Part shown: in pieces, positions 13,518 through 34,925 of the stretch | Numbering within the stretch: the first letter of the stretch is position 1 | How the letters are laid out: the number at the start of each line of letters is the position of its first letter | Source: a virus | Taxonomy: Duplodnaviria; Heunggongvirae; Uroviricota; Caudoviricetes | Reading direction: 5' to 3' (one strand) | Length of the DNA stretch: 46,724 bases | Virus record (IMG/VR): IMGVR_UViG_2579778634_000020 | Translations under genes and position numbers: made by a program | The notes under the pieces: model-generated | Database searches by the model: none | The model's input: only the letters and a program-made list of their open reading frames with translations | Told to the model about the DNA's origin: nothing

Positions 13518-13979
13518 CTATGGCTTTTTTATCGTATCCTGCTTCTGCTGCTCTTTACCCTGGGCGATGCTGGCTGCTTCTGCAAGGATCTGCCAGTACA
13601 ACTCTGGATTCTGCTTAAGCAGCGCGATCCCTCGTTCTGCCGTATATTCCAGTGCAACCTCAACACCATTAACCAGTTCACCAACCCCTTTCCAGTCTTT
13701 CAGCAGATAACGAGCGGCATTATCAATGAGTAAATCATCAACAGAATCCACCTCGGAAACCTTTGAAATATCAAACTCCTTCGTTCCGACGTGCAAACTG
13801 GCATCCATTTTCTCAATGTGGCGACGGATTAATGCATTACGGGAGCGATACTGATCGTTATCGCTGCTTGCCACCAACAGTTTTAACCCGTCTACAGGTT
13901 TTAAGTCCTTCATTGGCGTAAACCAGCGTTCTCCACCAATGATAATTTTCTGATTAAGAATAAACATCCATAACCTCAT
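13518..13979 (-). CDS. Tail assembly chaperone (lambda gpG analogue)
   Basis: 153 aa and acidic. Located between the major tail protein and the tape measure. A slippery site sits at its 3' end. Confidence 0.75.
   Translation of the reverse strand: MRLWMFILNQKIIIGGERWFTPMKDLKPVDGLKLLVASSDNDQYRSRNALIRRHIEKMDASLHVGTKEFDISKVSEVDSVDDLLIDNAARYLLKDWKGVGELVNGVEVALEYTAERGIALLKQNPELYWQILAEAASIAQGKEQQKQDTIKKP
13524..13530 (-). promoter_or_regulatory. Programmed -1 ribosomal frameshift slippery heptamer A_AAA_AAG, two codons before the chaperone stop
   Basis: Seen in sequence: minus strand ...GAT ACG ATA AAA AAG CCA TAG. The X_XXY_YYZ heptamer is in the zero frame and the -1 frame continues open into 13210..13443. 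Analogous to lambda G/GT. Confidence 0.75.
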
Positions 13980-21399: not shown

Positions 21400-22710
21400 T
21401 TAAATCCGAAGTGATGTGACTCTTCCGGTCGGTTTGACAATAGGGAATTGCTTAACGATGAAATAACCTCCGGCATCATTCGGGTGATCATTGCCAGATT
21501 TTTTATCAGGCTCCCCCTTATCATCCCAGACCTGTTGCTCCAGAGATTCGGCATATACCGGACAACGCTTCACATTAACTTTATAGCGACGCTCACCATT
21601 GGCATTGCAGAACATTGCATTCATTGAGTTAACGCGATCTTTTACTGGCGGGTTCGAGCTGTTCACCACAACGTTAAAACCAGCCTGCTTAAGCTGGGCT
21701 ATATCCGTCGTACTTGCGTTACTTGATTTTCTGGAATCTCCGGAAGCATCTGGATAAATATAAATCTCCCTCACTTTCCGGTAATCATTCCCGTCATACA
21801 GCCAGAAGCGTTCTTTAATGATGCGGATCATATCCGGCGTATCGTAGGCATTGATGATTTCAGTTACCGCACATGGAAGCCCCAAACGCAGCACATGGAC
21901 GATCCCCGCCATCTTTCCAACGTTAAAATCCATCCCAATATAAATCGGCTCCCCTGGCTGCTCCACTTCTTCGCAATTATTCAGTTTCCGGTCAAACTGA
22001 TGGTAAACAGTACCACTTGTCAGGTTAGTAAACTGTCCTCGAAGATAGGCTTTAATCAGCTCTGGAGGGTATGATTCAAGAAGCGAAGGAATGTAATCTG
22101 CTGGCAGGTTCTTTTCATTATCGAAAGTAGATGCCTGCACCAGACCATACAGTGAGGCCAGCTCTGTTTTTTCACGCACGGCTTTAACAAACTGCTCGTA
22201 GACAAATTTGAATCCTTCCGGCGTGGTTGTAACGTCAATACCGTTGCGAAGTCCATCAATCTTATAACGCATACGCGCAATTATCTTGCGCCACGCCGTT
22301 CTGGCTTTTTCCTTCGGCAAAATGTCCAGTTCATCCACCAGCGCATTACCAATTTTGAAACCGACGATCGTTTGTGGCTTCTCCATCGATCTGCAGATAG
22401 TGGTTCCCCGATACTGGCGTCCGTAATAAAAGTGAACCTCTTTATTTCCCTCATTAATTTTTACGTTCAATCCCCAGTCAGCAGCAACTTCTTCCACTGT
22501 AGGGTAAAAAATATCGCGAATTTGGGGATACGTTGGCGCAAAATATCCCTGATTTATACCTGGATGCTCCCAAATCCCCTTGCATATGCCGCCACACCCA
22601 ACCCATGTTTTGCCCGAGCCAAAACCAGCAATATAGGCTTTAAATTTATGGGGCATTGAAAGAAATCGCGCCTGAGGCACATTAAGCGTCGGAGAGATCA
22701 TCTTCATCAC
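21400..22710 (-). CDS. Terminase large subunit (ATPase + nuclease)
   Basis: Walker A AGFGSGKT near the N-terminus; acidic nuclease motifs in the C-terminal half. 436 aa. Confidence 0.9.
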   Translation of the reverse strand: MMKMISPTLNVPQARFLSMPHKFKAYIAGFGSGKTWVGCGGICKGIWEHPGINQGYFAPTYPQIRDIFYPTVEEVAADWGLNVKINEGNKEVHFYYGRQYRGTTICRSMEKPQTIVGFKIGNALVDELDILPKEKARTAWRKIIARMRYKIDGLRNGIDVTTTPEGFKFVYEQFVKAVREKTELASLYGLVQASTFDNEKNLPADYIPSLLESYPPELIKAYLRGQFTNLTSGTVYHQFDRKLNNCEEVEQPGEPIYIGMDFNVGKMAGIVHVLRLGLPCAVTEIINAYDTPDMIRIIKERFWLYDGNDYRKVREIYIYPDASGDSRKSSNASTTDIAQLKQAGFNVVVNSSNPPVKDRVNSMNAMFCNANGERRYKVNVKRCPVYAESLEQQVWDDKGEPDKKSGNDHPNDAGGYFIVKQFPIVKPTGRVTSLRI

Positions 22711-23776
22711 TCCTTACTCTGGCATCAACCACATTAATATTGATCGCCACAGGCTGGGGATGTTCATTATCTTCCACCGTTTCGATCTCTTTGCGCAGCT
22801 TCTGGTTTTCCATTCTGCGCCGTTCAATTTCCAGTTCCTGTAGCCGTTTATCTGCACATAAAGCCCCGCCAGCAGAAAACAAACGCAACAATTCACGCCG
22901 GGCGGCAGCCTTATCCTCCAGCAGGATCTCAACGCCGAATTTTCCGAATTTTGCCCCTGCATATAATTGCCGCGCATCCCCATCAAGCAGAGTGGTATCA
23001 GCCATATAAAGCTGTCCCGTTCCCTCACCGCAGCACTTCGGGCAGTCCGGATTGGGTATGGCGTTATCAACAAAGCCGAGGCCTCCATATTCCGGTTCGG
23101 GTTTGCCATCTCTGGAAGCCTGCGCCGCTGCCTTGTCGAATTCTGCTATATCGCGCCACTGGTAGAGATGATTCTCGCCCCAGCAATAACGGCAGTTAAC
23201 ACGGCGAAATTGTGCAAGCTGATTGGGGTCGGCCAGGACAATGGCCATCAACTGACTCACCAGTAAATCCAGGTCTGCGGTATAGCGTTTCTGGTACTGA
23301 TTGCGGAAGTAGCTGATAGCGCGAAAAACCCTGGCATTTCTAAGCATACGACTGGCGTTGCTGTTAGCTGTCGCACCTTGCCCCTCATAACCGGCTAGTC
23401 GGTACGCCTCTGTCGGCTTTTTCCCCTGAGCAACAAGCATCGCAAACTTAGCCTGCTGGTCAGAAATGCCGAATTCATCGGGACAGAACGAAAATTCCTC
23501 CGCGTCGCCCTCATTCAGGCCCGCATCGAATACTGGCTTTTTTTCCTGAGATTTTTCGTTCCGCTTTTGTGCAGTCTGCGCAGATTTTTTCTGCGCACTT
23601 TTTTGCGCAGTTTTGCGCATTTCTGTCTGCGCATTTTTCGGAGGTTTTTTGATGTAACGACGGGCTGTTGCGTAATTCAGTCCCCTTGCTTCACACCATG
23701 CCACCGGAGATATACCGGAGCGGGTGTATTCAGCAATATACTCCTGCTGCAACGCCCCCCAGTCCGGTCTGCTCAT
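22682..23776 (-). CDS. Terminase small subunit (N-terminal HTH + Terminase_2-like core), unusually long (364 aa) with a C-terminal Cys-rich segment (C..C...CPKCCGEG)
   Basis: N-terminal HTH ISPVAWCEARGLNYATARRYIKK, then AYRLAGYEG...NASRMLRNARV. Overlaps the large terminase subunit. Confidence 0.7.
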   Translation of the reverse strand: MSRPDWGALQQEYIAEYTRSGISPVAWCEARGLNYATARRYIKKPPKNAQTEMRKTAQKSAQKKSAQTAQKRNEKSQEKKPVFDAGLNEGDAEEFSFCPDEFGISDQQAKFAMLVAQGKKPTEAYRLAGYEGQGATANSNASRMLRNARVFRAISYFRNQYQKRYTADLDLLVSQLMAIVLADPNQLAQFRRVNCRYCWGENHLYQWRDIAEFDKAAAQASRDGKPEPEYGGLGFVDNAIPNPDCPKCCGEGTGQLYMADTTLLDGDARQLYAGAKFGKFGVEILLEDKAAARRELLRLFSAGGALCADKRLQELEIERRRMENQKLRKEIETVEDNEHPQPVAININVVDARVRSDEDDLSDA

Positions 23777-23779
23777 CAG

Positions 23780-24031
23780 TTAGTCCTGATTTTTATCCAC
23801 CCTGAGTAGTTCGCGCAGAGCAAAGGCATCCCCTTTTCTGGCAAGCTTAAACAATGCCGCTCGTAACTCGGCTTCACCTTTCGCTCTGCCCTTACGGATG
23901 GCCGCATAAAAATCTGTCATTGCTTCCCGATTTTCTTTCAGTCGGTTCAGATCAACATCCAGAACGTCAGCGATTTGTTGTGCAGTCATCCGGCACGCTG
24001 CCAGAGACTCGACTTTCGAATACGGAATCAT
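23780..24031 (-). CDS. Small HTH DNA-binding protein (83 aa), possibly packaging-associated
   Basis: MTAQQIADVLDVDLNRLKENREAM... is an HTH-like segment; located directly upstream of terS. Confidence 0.4.
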   Translation of the reverse strand: MIPYSKVESLAACRMTAQQIADVLDVDLNRLKENREAMTDFYAAIRKGRAKGEAELRAALFKLARKGDAFALRELLRVDKNQD

Positions 24032-24920
24032 TTGTCACCCCTATTGATATGCAGGGTGTCTTCTTCCTGTATTTTTCGTGAAGGATTTTTACTGCAGCGT
24101 TGTTCCAGGTGACCTGATGGTGAATGCGTTTATGGCTGGCACCCATCAGTGAGATTTTTACGCACGACGGCGCATACATGACGGAGTAAAAACTTTTAAC
24201 GTAGGTTCCGGAATCCAGATACAGCTCGGTCATTCCGCCGCTGTTTTTCTGCGTCTGTTTCTGCCCTAACTGGACAGCACCGATCGTCATGAACAATTCA
24301 CCACAGCGACCGAGATTCGTGTACGTATTCACATCCTCGTTAATGCGCCCCATGAATGAGAACGGTCGATCAACCGAACAGATAAAGCTGTTCATTGCCT
24401 TGCGTTTCACCCACGAAGCATGGCCGCCATTGTCACCAAGAAAATCCCCGCCCTGCGACATAGCGATGGAAAGAGCAGGTATTGATTCGTAGTACGCCAG
24501 CATTTCAGAAAGGATCGCATCCAGTTTCCTTATCGGAAAATAGGCCTGGTCATAGTTGCGATCCACCCGAAACTGGAACTCGTGATAATCATCATCGAGC
24601 TGAATGAAGTATTTACACCCGACCAGTTTTGCCAGGTCGAAACAGGCATTACGGGCGTAAAAAATTGAGCGGCGGTCACCGAAATTATCGGCTTCGTCAA
24701 AACGACTGGCGATATCGGCTTTGGAAAACACCAGCACCTGTTCACCAAATTCAGCCATGTACTGATGCCGTGTCTTATCTTCATCATCAACAACGATAAA
24801 AATTTTCCCGGTATAGCCAGCACGACGCAACGTCCGGTAAGTCAGAACTTTGTCCGGTCGCCCGTGAGTCAGAATAAAGGCGCAAAAATCATCACGCATA
24901 TTCCTCCTCCTCACCACCAT
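23967..24920 (-). CDS. Hypothetical protein with a GT-A-like glycosyltransferase signature (beta-strand/DD then DDD motif)
   Basis: FILTHGRPDKV...KIFIVVDDED ... YFIQLDDDYHEF resembles the nucleotide-diphospho-sugar transferase fold. Weak inference. Confidence 0.35.
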   Translation of the reverse strand: MVVRRRNMRDDFCAFILTHGRPDKVLTYRTLRRAGYTGKIFIVVDDEDKTRHQYMAEFGEQVLVFSKADIASRFDEADNFGDRRSIFYARNACFDLAKLVGCKYFIQLDDDYHEFQFRVDRNYDQAYFPIRKLDAILSEMLAYYESIPALSIAMSQGGDFLGDNGGHASWVKRKAMNSFICSVDRPFSFMGRINEDVNTYTNLGRCGELFMTIGAVQLGQKQTQKNSGGMTELYLDSGTYVKSFYSVMYAPSCVKISLMGASHKRIHHQVTWNNAAVKILHEKYRKKTPCISIGVTNDSVFESRVSGSVPDDCTTNR

Positions 24921-25683
24921 GCATGATCTCCACCATGCGCTGCGTCATCCGGACAAATCCATTTTCAATAGCCTGCTGATAATCAATGATCACCAGCGCC
25001 GACTCCTCGAAAAAACACTGAATTTCAGCGGGGGCGTGAGCGTAATAGTCCGCAATTCTGCTGAAATTAAACACCGTGTGACGTTCTGCCGCACACAGGA
25101 GGAATTTCTCAATATCAGGCTCAAGAGACGCCGAACGTATCCGGCTGATCAGCTCCTGAGTTTTCGTATCGTCGTACAGTTCACTGATATCCGGTTTACC
25201 GCCCGACGGCTCATAAACAGGCGTATCAATTTTCGTCGTATACGGCTCCTCCTCATTTCCTGTACCGGGCAAAACATCCGTCAACAGTTCATCAATTTCT
25301 GTCGGGATGAAGCCTGTCAGGGAGACATCAAAATCAGCATTGATTAGGTCCGACAGCTCCATCCGCAACAGATCTTCATCCCAGCCAGCATTCATCGGCA
25401 GGCGATTATCTGCCAGGCGGTACGCCTTTTTCTGCTCATCCGTCAGGCCAGACAGAACAATGACCGGAACAGAATCCATTTTGAGCATTTCAGCCGCCAT
25501 AACACGACCGTGACCCGCAATAATTTCGCCCTTTTCGTCAATCAGCACCGGATTAGTCCAGCCGAATTGCTTAATACTTTCTACCAGTTGTGCCACCTGC
25601 TCAGTACTGTGCGTCCTGGCGTTGTGCGCATACGGTGACAATTCTTGTAATGGGCGATAGACTATCTTTAATTTCTCGCTCAT
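24892..25683 (-). CDS. ParB-like nuclease domain protein (ParB/Srx N-terminal domain)
   Basis: N-terminal KIVYRPLQELSPYAHNARTHSTEQVAQLVESIKQFGWTNPVLIDEKGEIIAGHGR is typical ParB-N (GxxR). C-terminus acidic. Confidence 0.7.
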   Translation of the reverse strand: MSEKLKIVYRPLQELSPYAHNARTHSTEQVAQLVESIKQFGWTNPVLIDEKGEIIAGHGRVMAAEMLKMDSVPVIVLSGLTDEQKKAYRLADNRLPMNAGWDEDLLRMELSDLINADFDVSLTGFIPTEIDELLTDVLPGTGNEEEPYTTKIDTPVYEPSGGKPDISELYDDTKTQELISRIRSASLEPDIEKFLLCAAERHTVFNFSRIADYYAHAPAEIQCFFEESALVIIDYQQAIENGFVRMTQRMVEIMHGGEEEEYA

Positions 25684-25700: not shown

Positions 25701-25734
25701 ATAAAACGCACCCCAGCAGCCAGTGCTACTGGGG
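25701..25734 (-). terminator. Hairpin (CCCCAG...CUGGGG) + U-rich tract downstream of trkG
   Basis: Seen in sequence. Confidence 0.45.
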
Positions 25735-25820: not shown

Positions 25821-27278
25821 TTAGGAGCGCCAAAAAAAACCTGAAAACAATATAATAACAGGATAAATTTCAAGGCGACCAAGAATCATAGCTATGCACA
25901 TTAAACATTTTGCAATGTCATTAAGCACTCCGAATGACGATGCAGTAGCCCCAAAACCTAATCCCATATTATTAATACATGCAGCCACTGTTGCAAATGA
26001 TGTAAGAAAATCATATCCCATACCATTTAACACCAGTATAAAAAACACCGTGAAGAGAGTATAAAGAAAAAAGAAACTCCATACAGACCTCATTACACGA
26101 TCTGTAACTATCTTCCCTCCTACATTTACACTCAACAACGCTCTGGGATGAGAAAGCTGATTTATCTCGTGTTTGCTTTGTTTGAAAAGTATAAGAAATC
26201 GAAGTGACTTAATTCCACCACAAGTTGAACCTATACATCCCCCAAAGAAACTTGACAACAGCAAAAACACTATCGTGTGCGTGGGCCAACTTGCATAATC
26301 CTGCGTAGCTAAACCATTATCAGTGAGCATGGAGCTGGCAAGAAAAAACGAATGAATAAAACTTCCATGCAAGTCATACATACCTATATGCCAGACCTGG
26401 AAAGAGGTAACAATGATCACCCCTAAGGCTATTAACAGAAAGAAACGAAGTTCAATATCTCTGATTAAAGGTTTTATCGTTTTCCTGCTAATAACAATAT
26501 ACCAAAGAGTGAAGTTGAAAGCCGATAGCAGGGAAAAAGAACCAGCCACCAGCTCAACCAAATAGTTATTAAAATATCCGATACTCTCGCTATGAGTTGA
26601 GAAACCACCAAGCGAAACTGTGGAAATCCCGTGACAAATAGCATCAAACAAAGGCATTCCTGCAAGTCTATAACAGACAATACAAGCAATACCTAATAAA
26701 GAATAAGTTATCCACAGTGTCCGTGACGTATCGGCCAGGCGGGGAGTGAGTTTGTCATCCTTAAATGGCCCCGGCATTTCTGACTGATAAAGCTTTGCAC
26801 CACCAATACCCAATAATGGCAATACAGCAACCGCCAGAACAATAACTCCTAAACCACCTATAAAATTTAACTGTGACCGATAGTACAAATATGCCCGAGG
26901 TAATGAACTAACATCATCAATTACAGTTGCTCCTGTTGTTGTTATTCCAGAAACCCCTTCAAACAGAGCATCAATGAACGTTAAATTAAGTTCTGAGTCA
27001 ATCCATAAAGGGAATGCACTAATAACAGAAAACAAAATCCAAAACATTACAATTATAATAAACCCATCACGGGTACGTAATTGAATGCCAGATTTCTTAG
27101 TTGTATACCACGCTCCGCCACCAATGCAAAAAAATATAACGAAAGTTATAAAGAAAACGAACAGGCTTTTTTCTTTATAAAACAATGCTACAACCATTGG
27201 TGGCAACATTGAAAGACTATAGAGCCAAACCAGGAACCCACACATATGAGTAACAACTCTTACATGAGATGTATTCAT
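25821..27278 (-). CDS. trkG: Trk-system K+ uptake protein TrkG (TrkH/KtrB family); prophage cargo gene. Start taken at MNTSHV.
   Basis: 485 aa polytopic membrane protein matching Rac-prophage TrkG of E. coli K-12 as I recall it. Much lower GC than the flanking phage genes. Confidence 0.9.
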   Translation of the reverse strand: MNTSHVRVVTHMCGFLVWLYSLSMLPPMVVALFYKEKSLFVFFITFVIFFCIGGGAWYTTKKSGIQLRTRDGFIIIVMFWILFSVISAFPLWIDSELNLTFIDALFEGVSGITTTGATVIDDVSSLPRAYLYYRSQLNFIGGLGVIVLAVAVLPLLGIGGAKLYQSEMPGPFKDDKLTPRLADTSRTLWITYSLLGIACIVCYRLAGMPLFDAICHGISTVSLGGFSTHSESIGYFNNYLVELVAGSFSLLSAFNFTLWYIVISRKTIKPLIRDIELRFFLLIALGVIIVTSFQVWHIGMYDLHGSFIHSFFLASSMLTDNGLATQDYASWPTHTIVFLLLSSFFGGCIGSTCGGIKSLRFLILFKQSKHEINQLSHPRALLSVNVGGKIVTDRVMRSVWSFFFLYTLFTVFFILVLNGMGYDFLTSFATVAACINNMGLGFGATASSFGVLNDIAKCLMCIAMILGRLEIYPVIILFSGFFWRS

Positions 27279-27415
27279 ATCTAAATATTCTTTCAATTAT
27301 AACCACCTTGCTGCAATATTATGATTATACTGTATAAAATTTAACTCCTCTTAGATCTTACTTCACTGTTCCTTATGAAACAATCATCAAAATGAATCAT
27401 ATTGTAGTTAAGATT

Positions 27416-28915: not shown

Positions 28916-29077
28916 ATGTCTGAAAAAAACAAACCACAAGGTGAAAATAAACCTCAGCACCCCGTGGCACCAAAACCAACTCCAACACAAAGTACTACAG
29001 ACTTTGCTACACGTCGTGTTTTTGTTGGAGATTCTGCCGACTCAGTCATTGAACATATAAAAAAACAGCCGAGATAA
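28916..29077 (+). CDS. Small hypothetical protein (53 aa) on the plus strand, convergent with and overlapping the 3' end of the 189-aa membrane protein gene
   Basis: RBS AGAGGA 7 nt upstream. MSEKNKPQGENKPQHPVAPKPTPTQSTTDFATRRVFVGDSADSVIEHIKKQPR. Confidence 0.4.
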   Translation: MSEKNKPQGENKPQHPVAPKPTPTQSTTDFATRRVFVGDSADSVIEHIKKQPR

Positions 29078-29615
29078 ACATCGCCGCTACCGGAGCAAGG
29101 ATGGTATACATCCTTGCTTTATCGAGACTCGTGCGGATTTTCTCATTTTCCAACAGTAACTCTCTTGCTGTATCACTCAAGTCAACAAGGCGATACCTTC
29201 GTATAAGCGGCAATAACTTATCAGGTCCTAAATATCCTGCATCAGCGAATATTTTAAAGCTCGAGGGCTCCATATCCTTATATTTTTCATGATATAGATG
29301 ATCAGGAGGGGCATTGATCAGGCCCCTAACCTTCACAGATAAACCAGTACATACCAAGTAAATGGCGCACCATGTCCATAGTAATGTAAATGTGGTAATT
29401 CCGGCGGTGAGAAAATCGAAATTAGTTTTCTGTGTCAGCAATAAAAAAGATGAACCAATTCCAACAATCTGAATGTTCAGAAGTTTGTATCCATTCTCAA
29501 CATTGGTTTTGTTAGAAAGATGAATCTCTCGTATCGTCTCTTCCCCTTGTTTTTCAAGATAATCGACGAGCTCATCATCTACTCCTAAAAAATAATCTTT
29601 AGGTAGTTCTCTCAT
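29046..29615 (-). CDS. Hypothetical membrane protein (3 predicted TM segments) in the moron slot between tR' and the holin
   Basis: 189 aa. TM candidates LLNIQIVGIGSSFLLLTQ, FTLLWTWCAIYLVCTGL and ILAPVAAMFISAVFLYV. No recognisable family. Confidence 0.55.
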   Translation of the reverse strand: MRELPKDYFLGVDDELVDYLEKQGEETIREIHLSNKTNVENGYKLLNIQIVGIGSSFLLLTQKTNFDFLTAGITTFTLLWTWCAIYLVCTGLSVKVRGLINAPPDHLYHEKYKDMEPSSFKIFADAGYLGPDKLLPLIRRYRLVDLSDTARELLLENEKIRTSLDKARMYTILAPVAAMFISAVFLYVQ

Positions 29616-29836: not shown

Positions 29837-30379
29837 TCAAGCTATTTTTTGAGCAAATGATTCTCGCATGGGAATATATAGGGCATACTCAGCAACAGCC
29901 AACCAATTAGCAATTCGCTTTTCGCATGTGCTAAAACACCACTCAGGATGTGCATCATTTAGCAATTCAGCCATTTTGCGCTTAGTCATCCCCCGTCCTT
30001 CATACCGTTGCCGGAGGACACTAATCAATCCAGGATGCTCTGCCAGCACCTCACTTATGACTCTATCAATACATAACGCCTCTGCATCAGTACAATGCGC
30101 CAGCCAGGTCTTTTGCTTGCCATTGATCATCTCTCGCAAAAACGCTTCCAGCTCAGGTTTCTCTATTCCCGCTTTTTTCATCCTGCGCAGGGCTTCATTG
30201 ACGGCTGTTTTCGTCAATTTTTTGGATGCCAGCAACTGGTTAAACATATTTCCCGTCTTACCGCCGCCAATATACGACCAGCGCCCCCACATGCGCAGTT
30301 TTCCCTGAATCCAGACACTTTCCAGCGTGGTGAGACGAAGGTGTTCCCCGCTTTTGCCTGTATTTGTTGGGTAAATCAT
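29837..30379 (-). CDS. Late antiterminator Q-family protein. Start taken at MIYPTNTGK, with RBS AAGGAAGG; the ORF-track extension to 30499 is likely not translated.
   Basis: Position upstream of pR'/tR' and the lysis genes. Its ATG overlaps the stop of the upstream gene (ATGA). Phage antitermination Q-like sequence. Confidence 0.6.
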   Translation of the reverse strand: MIYPTNTGKSGEHLRLTTLESVWIQGKLRMWGRWSYIGGGKTGNMFNQLLASKKLTKTAVNEALRRMKKAGIEKPELEAFLREMINGKQKTWLAHCTDAEALCIDRVISEVLAEHPGLISVLRQRYEGRGMTKRKMAELLNDAHPEWCFSTCEKRIANWLAVAEYALYIPMRESFAQKIA

Positions 30380-30666
30380 AAATAACCTTCCTTTCTCCAG
30401 ATTTCTTGTGTGCGAAAAACACCTTCTGCATGCATCAGGCGTAATTCTTCTTTGGTGTAATCGCTGGTTTTTACCCGCCCGTCGATTAAATCGTGGCATG
30501 AGCTACAGGCAATCGCTGCCTGCATATCGTGTGGTTTTGTCGCTGTTCCGCACGTCCCCGCCAGCCTGTAATGCGCCAGCACAGATGTTTCGGGATTGTG
30601 ATTGCAGTAGCCAGGAATTCTGACGGTGCACATCTGCCCCCGCGCCGCTTTACGTAAATCCACCAT
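30376..30666 (-). CDS. DUF1364/YbcO-like Cys4 zinc-binding nin-region protein (putative nuclease)
   Basis: 96 aa with C..C....C..C pattern (CNHNPETSVLAH...CGTATKP...CSSCHDLIDGR). Same length and motif arrangement as DLP12 YbcO. Confidence 0.5.
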   Translation of the reverse strand: MVDLRKAARGQMCTVRIPGYCNHNPETSVLAHYRLAGTCGTATKPHDMQAAIACSSCHDLIDGRVKTSDYTKEELRLMHAEGVFRTQEIWRKEGYL

Positions 30667-32031: not shown

Positions 32032-33861
32032 ATGAGCACTTCCGCATACAAGAGCAAAATTCGAACACTCCAGTGCGCGTTAAAAAACGGTGAATTTGAA
32101 CCATTCATACAACATATCCGTTTTCCATACTTTAAAAATATAGAGCAGAATGCAAGGATCGATTTTCAGTTCCCTATAACGGCTTTAGTAGGAAAAAATG
32201 GAACTAATAAAAGTTCTGTTATCAAAGCGCTATTTGGTTGCCCACATGGTAAAAATATAACTCGTTATTGGTTCACAACTGAAACAGATGAGTTTCCTGA
32301 CCTAAAACTTGCTGATGGCAGTTCTCTTAAACCTAGATATATATATGGATATAAAAATGCTGATGGCCGTTTAGTTGAAATACTCCAAGCACGTATCAAT
32401 GCTACCAAGAAAACAATCGATTATTGGGAAACAAGTCGACCATCTGTTGGTGATAACATGGAGAGTATTTCGGATGATCTGGGTGCTAATAGTAATGCAA
32501 CCAGATGGAAAAAAATCAAGAAGGGATTGGTTTTCCTAGATTTCAGATCGGAAATAAGTGCATTTGATAGATGTATGTATCACTCTGATTTTAAATTAAG
32601 AAAGAAGAAGAGTGGTGTATTAATTACAAAGCAAGACTATATCAGAAGCAAATCTAAATATATAAAGAAAGCTTTTGATGAAAAGCTAAGTAATTTAAGA
32701 CTCTGGGGGGCGGAAACCATTGTTAAAAATATAACCTTGGCGCCAGAACTAGTTGAGCACGTCTCATTTATATTAGGGAAAAAATATAAAGTCATTAAAT
32801 TTCTTGAGCATCGGTTATTTGGAACCAGAGGAGGAACCGCTTTACTTTCAACTGATAAGTTGAACTATACAGAAGCGTTTGCTGGAAGTGGTGAATTTGC
32901 AATAGTTTCACTAATACTCAATATTTATTCGGCCAAACCTAATTCATTAATTCTTCTTGACGAACCAGAAGTTTCACTTCACCCTGGTGCACAAAAAAGG
33001 ATGATGGATGTTCTGTACTCTATTGTTGAGCAGAAAAAACATCAAGTGGTAATATCAACCCATTCTCCTGTTATTGTGAACACTCTTCCCAAAGATGCCA
33101 TTAAATTATTTGTTTTTGATGAAGAGAGTGAAACAGCTAAAATAGTTCAAAATATAGCACCGGATGAAGCTTTTATAGAGCTAGGGCATGATATTAACAA
33201 GAAAACAATAATTGTAGAAGATAAATTAGCTAAAGCAATTATAGATAAAGCGATTAAAAATGATGAAAGATTAAGCTTATCATTTAGTGTAAGTTATATA
33301 CCAGGTGGTTCGGAGACCATTTTAAGCAAGCATCTTCCCAGTTACGCTGTGGTAGAACGCAATGATATTTTGTTTTTACTTGATGGTGATAAAAACAAAA
33401 AAATAAAACCAGTAAGAATTAGTGAAATTGCTGATGCTGATTTAGTTAATACAATGTGCAAATATTATGGTTGCGAGTTAATTATCAATGCCAGTGGTAG
33501 TAATGGCAAAAAAAATGAACAAGAATCTAATAGACTCAAAAGGCAAGTGCTTGAGTATGCATTCAATAAAGTGCAGTATTTACCATTTGATACTCCCGAA
33601 CAATTACTCATTGAAAAGGCAATTACGCCAAGTGAAAAAGAAATAATTGATTCACAGACCTGGAGTTCTAATGATCCAGAACTGTATAAGAATCAAATAA
33701 GATTATTAGCGCAACACCTGTATGATAAAGAAGAAGTAAATGCAGAGGAAATTTTTTGCCTCCAACAAATGATGACCGCAAGACTTAAAAATGAATTGCC
33801 TGAATTTATAAAAATAAGAAAAATAATTACTCAGGCTCTTGACCGTGGTATCATTAGGTAG
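32032..33861 (+). CDS. OLD-family nuclease-like protein: N-terminal ABC/AAA_21-type ATPase + C-terminal Toprim domain
   Basis: Walker A VGKNGTNKSS; Walker B/D-loop LILLDEPEVSLHP; H-loop VVISTHSP; C-terminal Toprim-like IIVEDKLAK (conserved Glu) and FLLDGDKN (DxD). 609 aa, close to P2 Old (586 aa). About 33% GC versus roughly 50% in the flanks. Confidence 0.75.
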   Translation: MSTSAYKSKIRTLQCALKNGEFEPFIQHIRFPYFKNIEQNARIDFQFPITALVGKNGTNKSSVIKALFGCPHGKNITRYWFTTETDEFPDLKLADGSSLKPRYIYGYKNADGRLVEILQARINATKKTIDYWETSRPSVGDNMESISDDLGANSNATRWKKIKKGLVFLDFRSEISAFDRCMYHSDFKLRKKKSGVLITKQDYIRSKSKYIKKAFDEKLSNLRLWGAETIVKNITLAPELVEHVSFILGKKYKVIKFLEHRLFGTRGGTALLSTDKLNYTEAFAGSGEFAIVSLILNIYSAKPNSLILLDEPEVSLHPGAQKRMMDVLYSIVEQKKHQVVISTHSPVIVNTLPKDAIKLFVFDEESETAKIVQNIAPDEAFIELGHDINKKTIIVEDKLAKAIIDKAIKNDERLSLSFSVSYIPGGSETILSKHLPSYAVVERNDILFLLDGDKNKKIKPVRISEIADADLVNTMCKYYGCELIINASGSNGKKNEQESNRLKRQVLEYAFNKVQYLPFDTPEQLLIEKAITPSEKEIIDSQTWSSNDPELYKNQIRLLAQHLYDKEEVNAEEIFCLQQMMTARLKNELPEFIKIRKIITQALDRGIIR

Positions 33862-34925
33862 TGATTCTGGATGCAGAGGGAAAAATGAAAAAAATCAAAG
33901 TGTTTGACTTCTTTTCCGGTTGTGGTGGAACCAGCCAAGGTTTCCATCAAGCTGGAATGGATATTGTTTTTGGCCTCGATTTCGACGTTGATGCAGCCAG
34001 TTCATTTCGTGCAAATTTCCCGCAGGCTGCTTTTATTAACTCGGACATTAGGTTAATCGACAACAATGCCATAAACAAGTTAGTAAAAAAACATCGTAAT
34101 GATTACATTCTTTTTTCAGGATGTGCGCCTTGTCAACCGTACTCTAAGCAAAACTCAAATAAGAAAAATGATGATCCACGATTAGATCTATTAAAGGAAT
34201 TCAGTCGCTTTGTAGAGCATTATATGCCTGATTTTATTTTTGTTGAAAACGTGCCAGGAATGCAAAAGTTTAACAAAAATGAAGGAACATTCATGATGTT
34301 TTTAGAAATGCTTTCATCAAAGGGATATAGTGTAGATTATAAAGTAATGCCAGCTGCGTGGTACGGTGTACCACAGACGCGAGAAAGATTAGTGCTCATT
34401 GCATCCAAGGATTTTTATGTCGCATTGCCTTCTCCTACACATGGGGTTGGAAATACTCCCTATTCAACAGTAAAGGACTGGATCGCTAATTTACCGAAGA
34501 TAGAAGCAGGAGAAAAGCATAATAGTATTCCTGATCATGAAGCTGCACGCTTATCAGAGCTTAATTTACGTAGAATAAAATGCACTCCTGAAGGTGGAAG
34601 TCGAGAATTTTGGCCAGATGAATTGATTTTAGAATGCCATCGTAACCATAAAGGGCATACAGACGTATATGGACGTTTGAGTTGGGACAAACCAGCCAGC
34701 GGACTAACAACTCGTTGTATTAGCTATTCAAATGGACGTTTTGGACATCCAACACAAAATCGAGCAATATCGGTTCGTGAAGCAGCGTGTCTACAAACAT
34801 TTCCTTTGGATTATAAATTTATTGGTTCTTTGCAATCTCGGGCTCGTCAAATAGGAAATGCGGTCCCTCCGAAGATGTCTGAAACGATTGGAAAACATTT
34901 GCTTAATATAATCAAAGCCTCCTAG
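33861..34925 (+). CDS. DNA (cytosine-5)-methyltransferase. The ORF-track start is a GTG overlapping the upstream TAG; the probable start is ATG 33885 (MKKIKVFDFFSGCGG) with RBS AGGGA.
   Basis: Motif I FFSGCGG, motif IV GCAPCQPYS (catalytic Cys), motif VI ENVPGM, motif X QIGNAVPP. Confidence 0.9.
   Translation: MILDAEGKMKKIKVFDFFSGCGGTSQGFHQAGMDIVFGLDFDVDAASSFRANFPQAAFINSDIRLIDNNAINKLVKKHRNDYILFSGCAPCQPYSKQNSNKKNDDPRLDLLKEFSRFVEHYMPDFIFVENVPGMQKFNKNEGTFMMFLEMLSSKGYSVDYKVMPAAWYGVPQTRERLVLIASKDFYVALPSPTHGVGNTPYSTVKDWIANLPKIEAGEKHNSIPDHEAARLSELNLRRIKCTPEGGSREFWPDELILECHRNHKGHTDVYGRLSWDKPASGLTTRCISYSNGRFGHPTQNRAISVREAACLQTFPLDYKFIGSLQSRARQIGNAVPPKMSETIGKHLLNIIKAS

Follow-up and report, generated by a model that had tools for sequence, protein, structure and literature searches.

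A ParB-domain protein and a putative TAGT-family glycosyltransferase form a conserved, coupled gene pair in a Rac-like prophage of Escherichia coli

Introduction

In the 'ParB-Tls locus' proposed by Iyer et al. (2013), as summarized in later papers (PMC6536676, PMC4738411, PMC8256090), one or more genes for DNA-modifying enzymes lie between a ParB-like gene and the gene for the large subunit of the terminase. According to these summaries the concept is computational, most of the examples are methyltransferases and fusions of the ParB domain with the enzyme exist. Here we analyse a locus of this kind in a virus record of 46,724 nucleotides (nt), IMGVR_UViG_2579778634_000020 (Caudoviricetes), referred to below as the window, which is an intact Rac-like lambdoid prophage of Escherichia coli. 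In this prophage the gene ynaK, encoding a protein with a ParB/Srx N-terminal domain, directly precedes a gene for a putative glycosyltransferase of the TAGT family (hereafter TAGT), and the order ynaK, TAGT, a gene for a protein of 83 amino acids (aa), terS, terL fits the definition of the ParB-Tls locus. The locus departs from the described examples in that the enzyme is a glycosyltransferase without a source of its usual acceptor, and in that the conserved link is formed by a non-ParB C-terminal domain, which also exists without ParB.

A ParB protein has been shown experimentally to activate a DNA-modifying enzyme: ParB176 activates the phage thymine dioxygenase 5mYOX176 and is needed on double-stranded DNA (dsDNA) (O'Toole et al., 2026; PMC13229309). 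ParB176 is composed of a nucleotide-binding domain, helices of about 20 aa, an unstructured stretch of about 50 aa and a C-terminal domain, has no DNA-binding domain and is of a type often encoded near terminases. The same work associates kinases, amidotransferases and amino-acid transferases with the ParB-dependent dioxygenases; glycosyltransferases go with the ParB-independent class. A survey of the ParB-CTPase fold found that ParB–methyltransferase fusions are enriched in prophages, usually upstream of the terminase (PMC12704722). The original prediction for this locus had taken ParB-like genes near packaging genes as a mark of DNA-modification cassettes, a view with which both the ParB-Tls concept and the activation of a phage DNA dioxygenase by ParB (PMC13229309) agree.

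Among the characterized relatives of TAGT, the trypanosome JGT acts on 5-hydroxymethyluracil (5hmU), phage GT-A enzymes act on 5-hydroxymethylcytosine (5hmC) and TAGT of phage T6 has been assigned the addition of the second glucose to glucosyl-hydroxymethylcytosine. The active-site pattern R...DDD...ED[Y/F] has been described for JGT-like phage GT-A enzymes that act on 5hmC in DNA (Pyle et al., preprint).

Results

TAGT is a predicted GT-A glycosyltransferase with intact active-site motifs

The original prediction had described two overlapping genes, of 263 and 317 codons, and both open reading frames (ORFs) are present on the minus strand (Table 1). The 317-codon ORF is real, but its translation is likely to start at Met8 (position 24899), giving a protein of 310 aa, because the Shine-Dalgarno sequence GGAGGAGGA precedes this codon and because all homologues, as well as the PGAP annotation, start there. 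The protein had been thought to resemble nucleotide-sugar transferases, and its membership of the TAGT family in Pfam bears this out: PF20691 matches with 121.4 bits against a cut-off of 27.5 (E = 6.5e-35), covering profile positions 4-205 of 205. TAGT also matches phrog_842 (E = 9e-104). PHROG 842 bears the name of the T-even enzyme, and the label 'beta-glucosyl-HMC-alpha-glucosyltransferase' in phage records is misleading for TAGT; the T-even enzymes themselves lie beyond the reach of tblastn at 1e-5, and a comparison with the sequences in the PDB returned no relative.

Structure prediction, which had been proposed as the check on a GT-A fold, is in line with the family assignment. The AlphaFold2 (AF2) model has a predicted template modelling (TM) score of 0.70, with high per-residue confidence (pLDDT) for residues 1-150 and a poor C-terminal half. 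When compared with the PDB by Foldseek it matched only GT-A or nucleotidyl-transferase folds (probability 1.0, E of about 2e-4, TM scores of 0.3-0.4), among them SpsA, ColGalT1, SunS/ThuS and glycogenin, and among viral models it matched TAGT proteins at E = 3e-18 with TM scores of 0.61-0.68.

The two acidic motifs noticed earlier, DD (in VVDDED) and DDD (in LDDDY), are real, and 16 homologues, the most distant at 62% identity, all keep DDD. The alignment of these homologues has 80 invariant columns, many of them in the C-terminal half, and R14, D102-D103-D104 and E188-D189 are invariant throughout. The residue after ED is Val rather than Tyr or Phe, and an invariant tyrosine, Y193, lies four residues further on. 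By sequence, predicted fold and motifs, TAGT is assigned to the TAGT/JGT family, and we propose that it is a metal-dependent GT-A catalyst that would use a nucleotide-sugar donor. It shares with TAGT, JGT and GREB1 (PF20691) the sequence family, the predicted GT-A fold and the R...DDD...ED pattern. Unlike them, its third motif ends in Val, its clade has a small partner, probably obligatory, that has not been described for the others, and by annotation and Pfam the same genome contains no TET/JBP enzyme, C5-methyltransferase/TET pair or dCMP/dUMP hydroxymethylase; this locus thus lacks the contextual hallmark of the family, which is a TET/JBP or hydroxymethylase gene in association.

TAGT is basic (isoelectric point (pI) 8.0-8.6 here, 8.0-9.3 in most versions), and inspection of its sequence by eye revealed no membrane segment or envelope signal. 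The defence models of PADLOC matched neither TAGT nor the 83-aa protein, and a reading of TAGT as part of a defence system was rejected on this ground. TAGT of the E. coli lineage is extended by about 27 codons beyond the stop codon of its relatives (23967..24031, minus strand), and the frame overlaps the 83-aa gene by 65 nt. Among relatives at 74-94% identity (L057, L060 and L081 were compared) TAGT stops 18-28 nt ahead of the 83-aa gene. The tail of some 27 residues is specific to the lineage and is not conserved.

YnaK combines a ParB/Srx domain with a separate C-terminal region

YnaK is an acidic protein (pI 4.5) with a ParB/Srx N-terminal domain, a predicted disordered linker and a predicted helical C-terminal domain. 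The assignment of the N-terminal domain, already made in the original prediction, holds: Pfam ParB_N (PF02195) scores 29.3 bits against a gathering score of 26.3 (E = 8.7e-7), phmmer aligns the protein with the N-terminal domains of the Spo0J/ParB structures 1vz0 (residues 23-112), 4umk and 6sdk, and the AF2 model contains the expected beta-alpha elements. Over its full length YnaK matches phrog_620 (E = 1.3e-90). In the AF2 model residues 1-135, helices 103-134 included, have pLDDT values of 72-92, residues 136-170 are disordered and residues 171-255 are helical at low confidence.

Like the partition protein ParB (Spo0J) of ParABS systems, YnaK has the N-terminal ParB/Srx fold and a GxxR Box II. 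It differs from partition ParB in that its model contains neither the helix-turn-helix domain that binds parS nor the canonical dimerization domain, and in being strongly acidic. Box II reads G57-H-G-R60-V-M-A-A as against the canonical GERRxR, so that one of three arginines is kept. A conserved arginine of Box II is needed for nucleoside triphosphate binding by ParB; in 30 homologues of YnaK, G57, G59 and R60 are invariant, and R60 is replaced by Thr in the partners from Nocardia and Porphyromonas phages. TIGR00180 matched the N-terminal domain only, at 38 bits against a threshold of 58, and no parA gene is annotated in the prophage. The label 'chromosome partitioning protein' carried by genes of this type is misleading.

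The closest profile relatives of the ParB domain are instead those fused to phage DNA methyltransferases (phrog_498, 9e-51; PADLOC MTase_II PDLC03229, 1.7e-38), and the PADLOC match is confined to the ParB part of the methyltransferase model. YnaK itself has no methyltransferase domain. The TAGT-partner domain is joined to its ParB domain in that place, and the enzyme would therefore be recruited non-covalently. In its predicted layout YnaK is the same as ParB176, and in both cases the gene lies next to that of the enzyme, with an overlap in the case of ynaK; unlike ParB176, its neighbour encodes a putative GT-A glycosyltransferase rather than a 2-oxoglutarate/Fe(II) dioxygenase, none of which is present.

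The constant partner of TAGT is the non-ParB half of YnaK

Homologues of TAGT form more than 7,900 clusters at 90% identity among the matches listed; at 50% identity there are 1,329 representatives with E <=1e-3, of which 497 reach E <=1e-30. About 110 related loci were examined, and in each of them the gene directly upstream of TAGT encodes a homologue of YnaK: this holds for 85 of 85 close and 14 of 14 distant viral loci, for all six lineages of cultured phages and for the three loci that were reached through the C-terminal domain. Three metagenomic lineages at 63-65% identity carry the pair together with HK97-type terminases, and it is present in the Lactobacillus phages phi jlb1 and c5, Nocardia phage NTR1, a Porphyromonas phage (28% identity), Vibrio phage pv27 and Haloarcula hispanica tailed virus 2 (HHTV-2). 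In HHTV-2 (L102, genes 21-22) a full-length ParB-partner gene overlaps TAGT by 11 nt; this TAGT is 43% identical to the E. coli protein and the pair lies about 3 kb upstream of the large terminase gene. The module therefore crosses the divide between bacteria and archaea. A scan of viral contigs with a single sequence, a TAGT representative at 40% identity, returned nothing.

The Vibrio phages and 11 of the 14 distant viral loci have an upstream gene for a protein of only about 132 aa, without a ParB domain. These stand-alone partners align solely to positions 141-251 of the YnaK profile, that is, to the linker motif and the C-terminal domain. A profile of the C-terminal region retrieved 2,223 proteins, the best 120 of which are all of 125-147 aa and without a Pfam domain; each of the three stand-alone proteins that we looked up is encoded directly upstream of TAGT. 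From these alignments, the constant partner of TAGT appears to be the C-terminal, non-ParB half of YnaK, which the original prediction had missed. This region of YnaK has no significant relative in Pfam or among the sequences of the PDB, and to our knowledge it has not been described before. A literature search found no ParB- or partner-dependent glycosyltransferase and no such C-terminal domain, although Iyer et al. (2013) may list the pair.

The linker contains a motif with the consensus Y-[TS]-x-K-[IV]-x-x-P-x-Y-E-P (Y-T-x-K-I-x-x-P-x-Y-E-P in YnaK), in a region modelled as disordered (pLDDT <50). Tyr157-Glu158 is invariant and the other conserved columns are invariant or nearly so, and the motif is kept in the partners from Lactobacillus, Nocardia, Vibrio, Porphyromonas and haloarchaeal viruses. 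The motif could serve TAGT as a docking peptide or could itself accept the sugar. The partners are acidic across versions (pI 4.5-5.5), and no natural fusion of partner and TAGT was seen among the 150 best cluster representatives.

The same order of ParB gene, TAGT and terminase recurs in Lactobacillus, Nocardia, Porphyromonas and metagenomic phages; in phage c5 it is cos site, ParB-like gene, TAGT, two small ORFs and terL. The terminases beside the pair are unrelated to one another (Terminase_2, Terminase_4, GpA, TerL_ATPase and Terminase_3/6). Full-length partners adjoin the terminase in 9 of 11 lineages and stand-alone partners in none of five, where the terminase is 5-6 kb away or elsewhere, although these numbers are small.

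The pair is translationally coupled, probably expressed late and under purifying selection

The original prediction had suggested co-translation of the two overlapping genes. The idea stands, with an overlap of 8 nt in place of the 29 nt of the 317-codon ORF: the ATG of TAGT overlaps the stop codon of ynaK at ATGCGTGA. From the sequence of this junction ynaK and TAGT are judged to be translationally coupled. Start and stop codons also overlap or abut at the partner–TAGT junctions of unrelated phages.

Directly upstream of ynaK lies the terminator of trkG, with a 10-bp stem containing 7 G-C pairs, followed by a T-run. No sigma-70-like promoter was seen between this terminator and ynaK, and a homologue of DUF1133/antiterminator Q is encoded further upstream (29837..30499). 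Since a terminator lies upstream and no promoter-like site follows it, ynaK and TAGT are probably expressed late, on a transcript that they share with the lysis and packaging genes and that results from antiterminated read-through. trkG itself (25821..27296, minus strand) is a self-contained moron of GC content 0.39 with its own strong terminator, lying between the lysis genes and ynaK; phages outside the Enterobacteria that carry the pair have no trkG insert.

The ratio of non-synonymous to synonymous substitution rates (dN/dS) is low for ynaK, TAGT and the 83-aa gene (Table 1), all three of which are under purifying selection. With dN/dS of 0.06-0.16 for both genes and a wide occurrence in E. 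coli, the ORF pair is not due to chance. In distant pairs synonymous sites are saturated and TAGT is still 73-83% identical, as against 37-49% for terS, making it the most conserved gene of the region.

Sugar-tailoring enzymes accompany TAGT in other phages

In several members of the clade (P0248, P0251, P0286, P0267, P0268, P0287, P0271, P0308 and P0318) TAGT is fused to a further domain: an S-adenosylmethionine-dependent methyltransferase, a Sulfotransfer_2 domain of the carbohydrate sulfotransferase type, another TAGT-like domain, or a domain of about 180 aa at the N-terminus in which a Walker-A motif, GxxxxGKS, was recognized by eye (no Pfam match). These fusions suggest glycans that are methylated, sulfated, phosphorylated or extended. 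Phages with a stand-alone partner often encode extra glycosyltransferases between TAGT and the terminase (L111, 8065..11895; L110, 10686..11318; L089, 9133..10128). The enzymes found there include GT-B-like Glyco_trans_1_4, Glycos_transf_2, GT_PLOD, Gly_transf_sug and Methyltransf_24, and amount to a multi-enzyme glycan cluster. From the fusions and the clustered sugar-tailoring enzymes it follows that the product would be a glycan open to further elaboration, in the manner of the gene clusters known for DNA glycans.

In one metagenomic phage (L109, 6148..8334) a 728-aa fusion of an SNF2 helicase with an N6_N4 DNA methyltransferase follows directly after TAGT, a neighbourhood of DNA modification. 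Proteins of about 250 aa are encoded directly upstream of the stand-alone partner in five loci (L089, 4836..5594, overlapping; L090, 7784..8548; L093, 4325..5077; L099, 4763..5521; L111, 4295..5020). We considered them as cryptic ParB proteins or dioxygenases and rejected this, since they have no Pfam match, match only phrog_26016 and align with the ParB domain at an hhalign probability of 0.1%. They are confined to one phage lineage and may be the end of its replication module.

Setting of the pair in the prophage

Lysis genes come first on the minus strand, followed by trkG, ynaK, TAGT, the 83-aa ORF, terS, terL and portal (Table 1), and the head, tail, lysis and replication gene sets of the window are complete. 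The chromosomes of many strains contain segments 99.5-100% identical to a region of 2.2 kb around ynaK and TAGT; this region is matched in 1619 of 5426 complete E. coli genomes, with query coverage of at least 80% in 867, and by ten records of induced phages. Carriers include the enterotoxigenic strain H10407 and NCTC9082. The claim that neither gene has an assigned function is right as far as experiments go, but not at the level of the family, as RefSeq already names both proteins ('ynaK: ParB/Srx family N-terminal domain-containing protein' and, in recent annotations of TAGT, 'GREB1-related protein').

Table 1. Features of the ynaK–TAGT region, in coordinates of the window. The dN/dS values were computed against relatives at 79-96% protein identity.
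Feature	Position	Strand	Basis	dN/dS
ynaK, full length (263 aa)	24892..25683	-	ORF, Pfam ParB_N, phrog_620, RefSeq name ynaK	0.11-0.16
ParB/Srx N-terminal domain of YnaK, residues 1-135	25279..25683	-	Spo0J alignment, AF2, homologue alignment	
TAGT-partner region of YnaK, residues ~146-250	24934..25248	-	stand-alone homologues align here	
Y-T-T-K-I-D-T-P-V-Y-E-P-S motif of YnaK, residues 148-160	25204..25242	-	homologue alignments	
TAGT-family GT-A glycosyltransferase (putative), 310 aa from Met8	23967..24899	-	Pfam PF20691, phrog_842, Foldseek	0.06-0.13
TAGT 317-aa ORF from upstream ATG at 24920	23967..24920	-	ORF list	
TAGT DDD, D102-D104 (Met8 numbering), LDDDY metal/nucleotide-sugar binding motif	24588..24596	-	homologue alignment	
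ynaK/TAGT translational-coupling junction	24892..24912	-	sequence read: Shine-Dalgarno GGAGGAGGA, then ATGCGTGA	
83-aa gene between TAGT and terS	23780..24031	-	phrog_309 at 8e-23	0.08-0.20
Intrinsic terminator of trkG moron	25711..25734	-	stem-loop and T-run	
Small terminase subunit, terS	22682..23776	-	Pfam Terminase_2, phrog_51 at 1e-75, RefSeq annotation	0.09-0.18
Large terminase subunit, terL	21400..22710	-	downstream of terS	

The pair had been described as lying immediately upstream of terS. This is not so: the conserved 83-aa gene intervenes, within the range covered by the original prediction, which does not mention it. Its product is basic (pI 9.3), resembles the helix-turn-helix part of some small terminase subunits and is 59-70% identical to proteins from divergent loci of enterobacterial type, where the gene does not overlap TAGT. 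As it is conserved only within this clade, the 83-aa gene may belong to the packaging genes and not to the module.

TAGT is absent from K-12. The Rac prophage of K-12 MG1655 (L107, 1425377..1425980) retains an 87-aa fragment of ynaK joined to ydaY, from a deletion that runs from inside ynaK to ydaY and has removed TAGT, the terminase genes and the head genes. This deletion may explain why the pair went unstudied in K-12. In other E. coli strains fragments of ynaK or TAGT are fused to Lom, tail-fibre or transposase sequences.

Elsewhere in the window, a low-GC (0.34-0.39) moron of two genes with overlapping stop and start codons lies on the strand opposite to its neighbours (32032..34925, plus strand). 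Its first gene encodes a 609-aa AAA_21/AAA_15 ATPase of the AriA/PtuA/Old/GajA-like type (PADLOC HEC-04, 1.7e-34; ATPase-Toprim_I-B, 2.8e-26) and its second a 354-aa C5 cytosine DNA methyltransferase (Pfam, 5e-61; PADLOC MTase_II, 1.4e-96; DruM, 5e-92). It is a candidate prophage defence cassette, in which an OLD/Toprim-type ATPase would be combined with a protective methylase, and the slot is occupied by different cargo in another strain. The methyltransferase (33861..34925) was rejected as a supplier of substrate for TAGT, given that the variable moron is absent from other carriers and that 5-methylcytosine needs oxidation. Two further ORFs on the minus strand, of 189 aa (29046..29615) and 153 aa (13518..13979), have no Pfam or PADLOC match; the position of the latter, between the tail tube and tape-measure genes, is that of a 'YdaY family' protein in the annotation of a relative. 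The window contains no tRNA genes, and a related prophage has tRNA-Gly and tRNA-Thr upstream of the holin gene.

Discussion

We tentatively favour the view that ynaK and TAGT form a ParB-assisted, packaging-linked, late DNA glycosyltransferase module of the ParB-Tls type, and place this view just short of probable. It builds on what we observe of the pair: the family, fold and intact motifs of TAGT, purifying selection, coupling and the universal pairing with the C-terminal domain. In such a module TAGT would catalyse sugar transfer and YnaK would be its obligatory partner, the C-terminal half of which, composed of the linker peptide and the small helical domain, would bind or activate TAGT. 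The ParB/Srx domain would be an optional addition that holds or gates the enzyme on dsDNA around the time of packaging, a role that we draw by analogy from the ParB-dependent phage thymine dioxygenases and the ParB–methyltransferase fusions. The phage genome would be glycosylated late in infection, and the sugar-modified DNA would be protected from host nucleases or would take part in the control of packaging.

The interaction between YnaK and TAGT, the role of the ParB domain and DNA as the acceptor are what we infer. DNA is favoured because the ParB domain of YnaK resembles those attached to phage DNA methyltransferases, because the layout of YnaK matches that of the activator ParB176 and because the gene order fits the ParB-Tls locus. 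A basic TAGT facing an acidic partner is also in its favour, as are the action of characterized relatives on DNA, the active-site pattern shared with phage GT-A enzymes that glycosylate DNA and the sugar-tailoring enzymes fused to or clustered with relatives. Since TAGT is conserved across phages with unrelated terminases and virion proteins, its acceptor should be something common to all of them, either DNA or the partner, and on these comparisons a virion protein seems the least likely acceptor.

Several observations weigh against a DNA glycosylation module. We looked for a TET/JBP dioxygenase or a hydroxymethylase in the RefSeq annotation of a near-identical prophage and by Pfam scans of the unassigned ORFs of the window and of ten neighbours in distant loci, and found none. 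The complete 31.8-kb genome of phage c5 likewise has no oxidase or hydroxymethylase by annotation or Pfam, and the precomputed Pfam matches of nine metagenomic loci, with flanks of about 6-10 kb, include no enzyme that would supply a hydroxylated base. Besides being strongly acidic, the partner lacks a DNA-binding domain, the ParB domain is dispensable in many lineages, the Nocardia and Porphyromonas versions have lost the arginine of Box II, and the models of the C-terminal half of TAGT and of the C-terminal domain of the partner are of low confidence. The missing acceptor-base enzymes agree with a survey in which about 65% of phage glycosyltransferase contigs had neither a 5mYOX nor a ThyS neighbour, which was left unexplained. 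We hold the DNA reading no more firmly because we know of no glycosyltransferase that acts on an unmodified DNA base. A bolder version, in which the pair glycosylates ordinary, non-hydroxymethylated phage DNA around packaging, at an exocyclic amine, a host-methylated base or the backbone, with the C-terminal domain as obligatory protein cofactor and ParB as an optional clamp, we consider unlikely; that sugar might be transferred without a hydroxymethyl base is suggested by the enzymes that were not found.

If DNA is not the acceptor, the sugar may be transferred to a protein hydroxyl, in the likeliest case that of an invariant Tyr or of a Thr in the disordered motif of the partner, which would then be the substrate or primer, as is glycogenin, for a glycan extended by the additional glycosyltransferases. 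We regard this, the main rival, as doubtful. The C-terminal half of the partner is the sole molecule other than DNA that co-varies with TAGT in all lineages, and its motif lies in a disordered linker with an invariant Tyr-Glu and a near-invariant Tyr, Thr/Ser and Pro. GREB1, of the same family, is reported to O-GlcNAcylate oestrogen receptor alpha; SunS/ThuS, glycogenin and ColGalT1/LH3 are among the fold matches, though these are generic to the fold; and a GT_PLOD-type (collagen-type) glycosyltransferase has been added at one locus. The missing source of a hydroxylated DNA base in the window and in phage c5 and the lack of partner–TAGT fusions among the representatives inspected point the same way, and it has been proposed that clustered glycosyltransferase and O-methyltransferase genes bring about virion glycosylation in Cluster O mycobacteriophages. 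On the other hand, a glycosylated, acidic ParB-like protein has no obvious use, the nearest relatives of its ParB domain are attached to DNA methyltransferases, the terminase-side position is that of DNA-modification loci and TAGT is basic, as expected of a nucleic-acid enzyme; the virion and terminase proteins, being unrelated between carriers, cannot be a shared acceptor. It is improbable that TAGT performs the conventional reaction on 5hmU, 5hmC or another oxidized base supplied by an unrecognized enzyme, be it a very divergent dioxygenase, a host activity or one that acts on the DNA of a co-infecting phage. All characterized DNA-acting TAGT/JGT enzymes do use a hydroxyl on a modified base or its sugar, the 5mYOX survey covers thousands of contigs with divergent dioxygenases lacking a TET/JBP annotation in Pfam, and in some distant loci the gene just upstream of the partner encodes one of the proteins of about 250 aa that carry no annotation. 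These proteins do not occur with the E. coli, Lactobacillus, Nocardia and Porphyromonas versions, however, neither the window nor phage c5 has an oxidase or hydroxymethylase indicated by annotation or Pfam, and late genes behind a terminator are probably silent in a lysogen when foreign phage DNA enters. We also know of no hydroxymethyl bases in the DNA of E. coli.

Very improbable, in our view, is a packaging accessory, in which YnaK would be a ParB-like nuclease or partition-type factor that aids the terminase, as HNH proteins aid cos cleavage, and TAGT would merely travel with it and act on a small molecule or the envelope. Older annotations of 'ParB-like nuclease' or 'partition protein', the cos site and terminase adjoining the pair in phage c5 and the HNH genes near several loci would fit such a role. 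It is at odds with the persistence of the C-terminal domain and TAGT as a pair in the many lineages where the ParB domain is missing, with the coupling of ynaK to TAGT and with the Vibrio and several metagenomic versions, which lie away from the terminase; nor has YnaK a parA gene beside it, a parS-type helix-turn-helix or a ParA-binding region, or TAGT, by eye, a membrane segment or envelope signal. That the pair is decaying cargo of a defective prophage without a current function is scarcely credible. K-12 Rac, with its ynaK remnant and lost TAGT, and the many truncated variants in E. coli would suit decay, but the low dN/dS, with synonymous divergence saturated in distant pairs, contradicts it; the invariant columns of TAGT include the catalytic motifs, the pair is kept from Proteobacteria to haloarchaeal viruses and the gene set of the window is complete.

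A large and deeply conserved subset of the orphan phage JGT/TAGT glycosyltransferases is a fixed pair with a small partner domain, often fused to ParB, ahead of the terminase. If the acceptor is the partner protein, the pair would be a new phage protein-glycosylation system. If it is DNA, the principle that ParB activates a DNA-modifying enzyme would extend from oxidation to glycosylation, perhaps with a new DNA modification as the product. The presence of the system in many E. coli strains but not in K-12 provides a clean background for expression. Should unmodified DNA prove to be the acceptor, this would amount to a new chemical class of DNA modification, carried by about a sixth to a third of the E. 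coli strains sequenced and by phages whose hosts range from Proteobacteria to haloarchaea. It would have been overlooked because E. coli K-12 deleted the gene.

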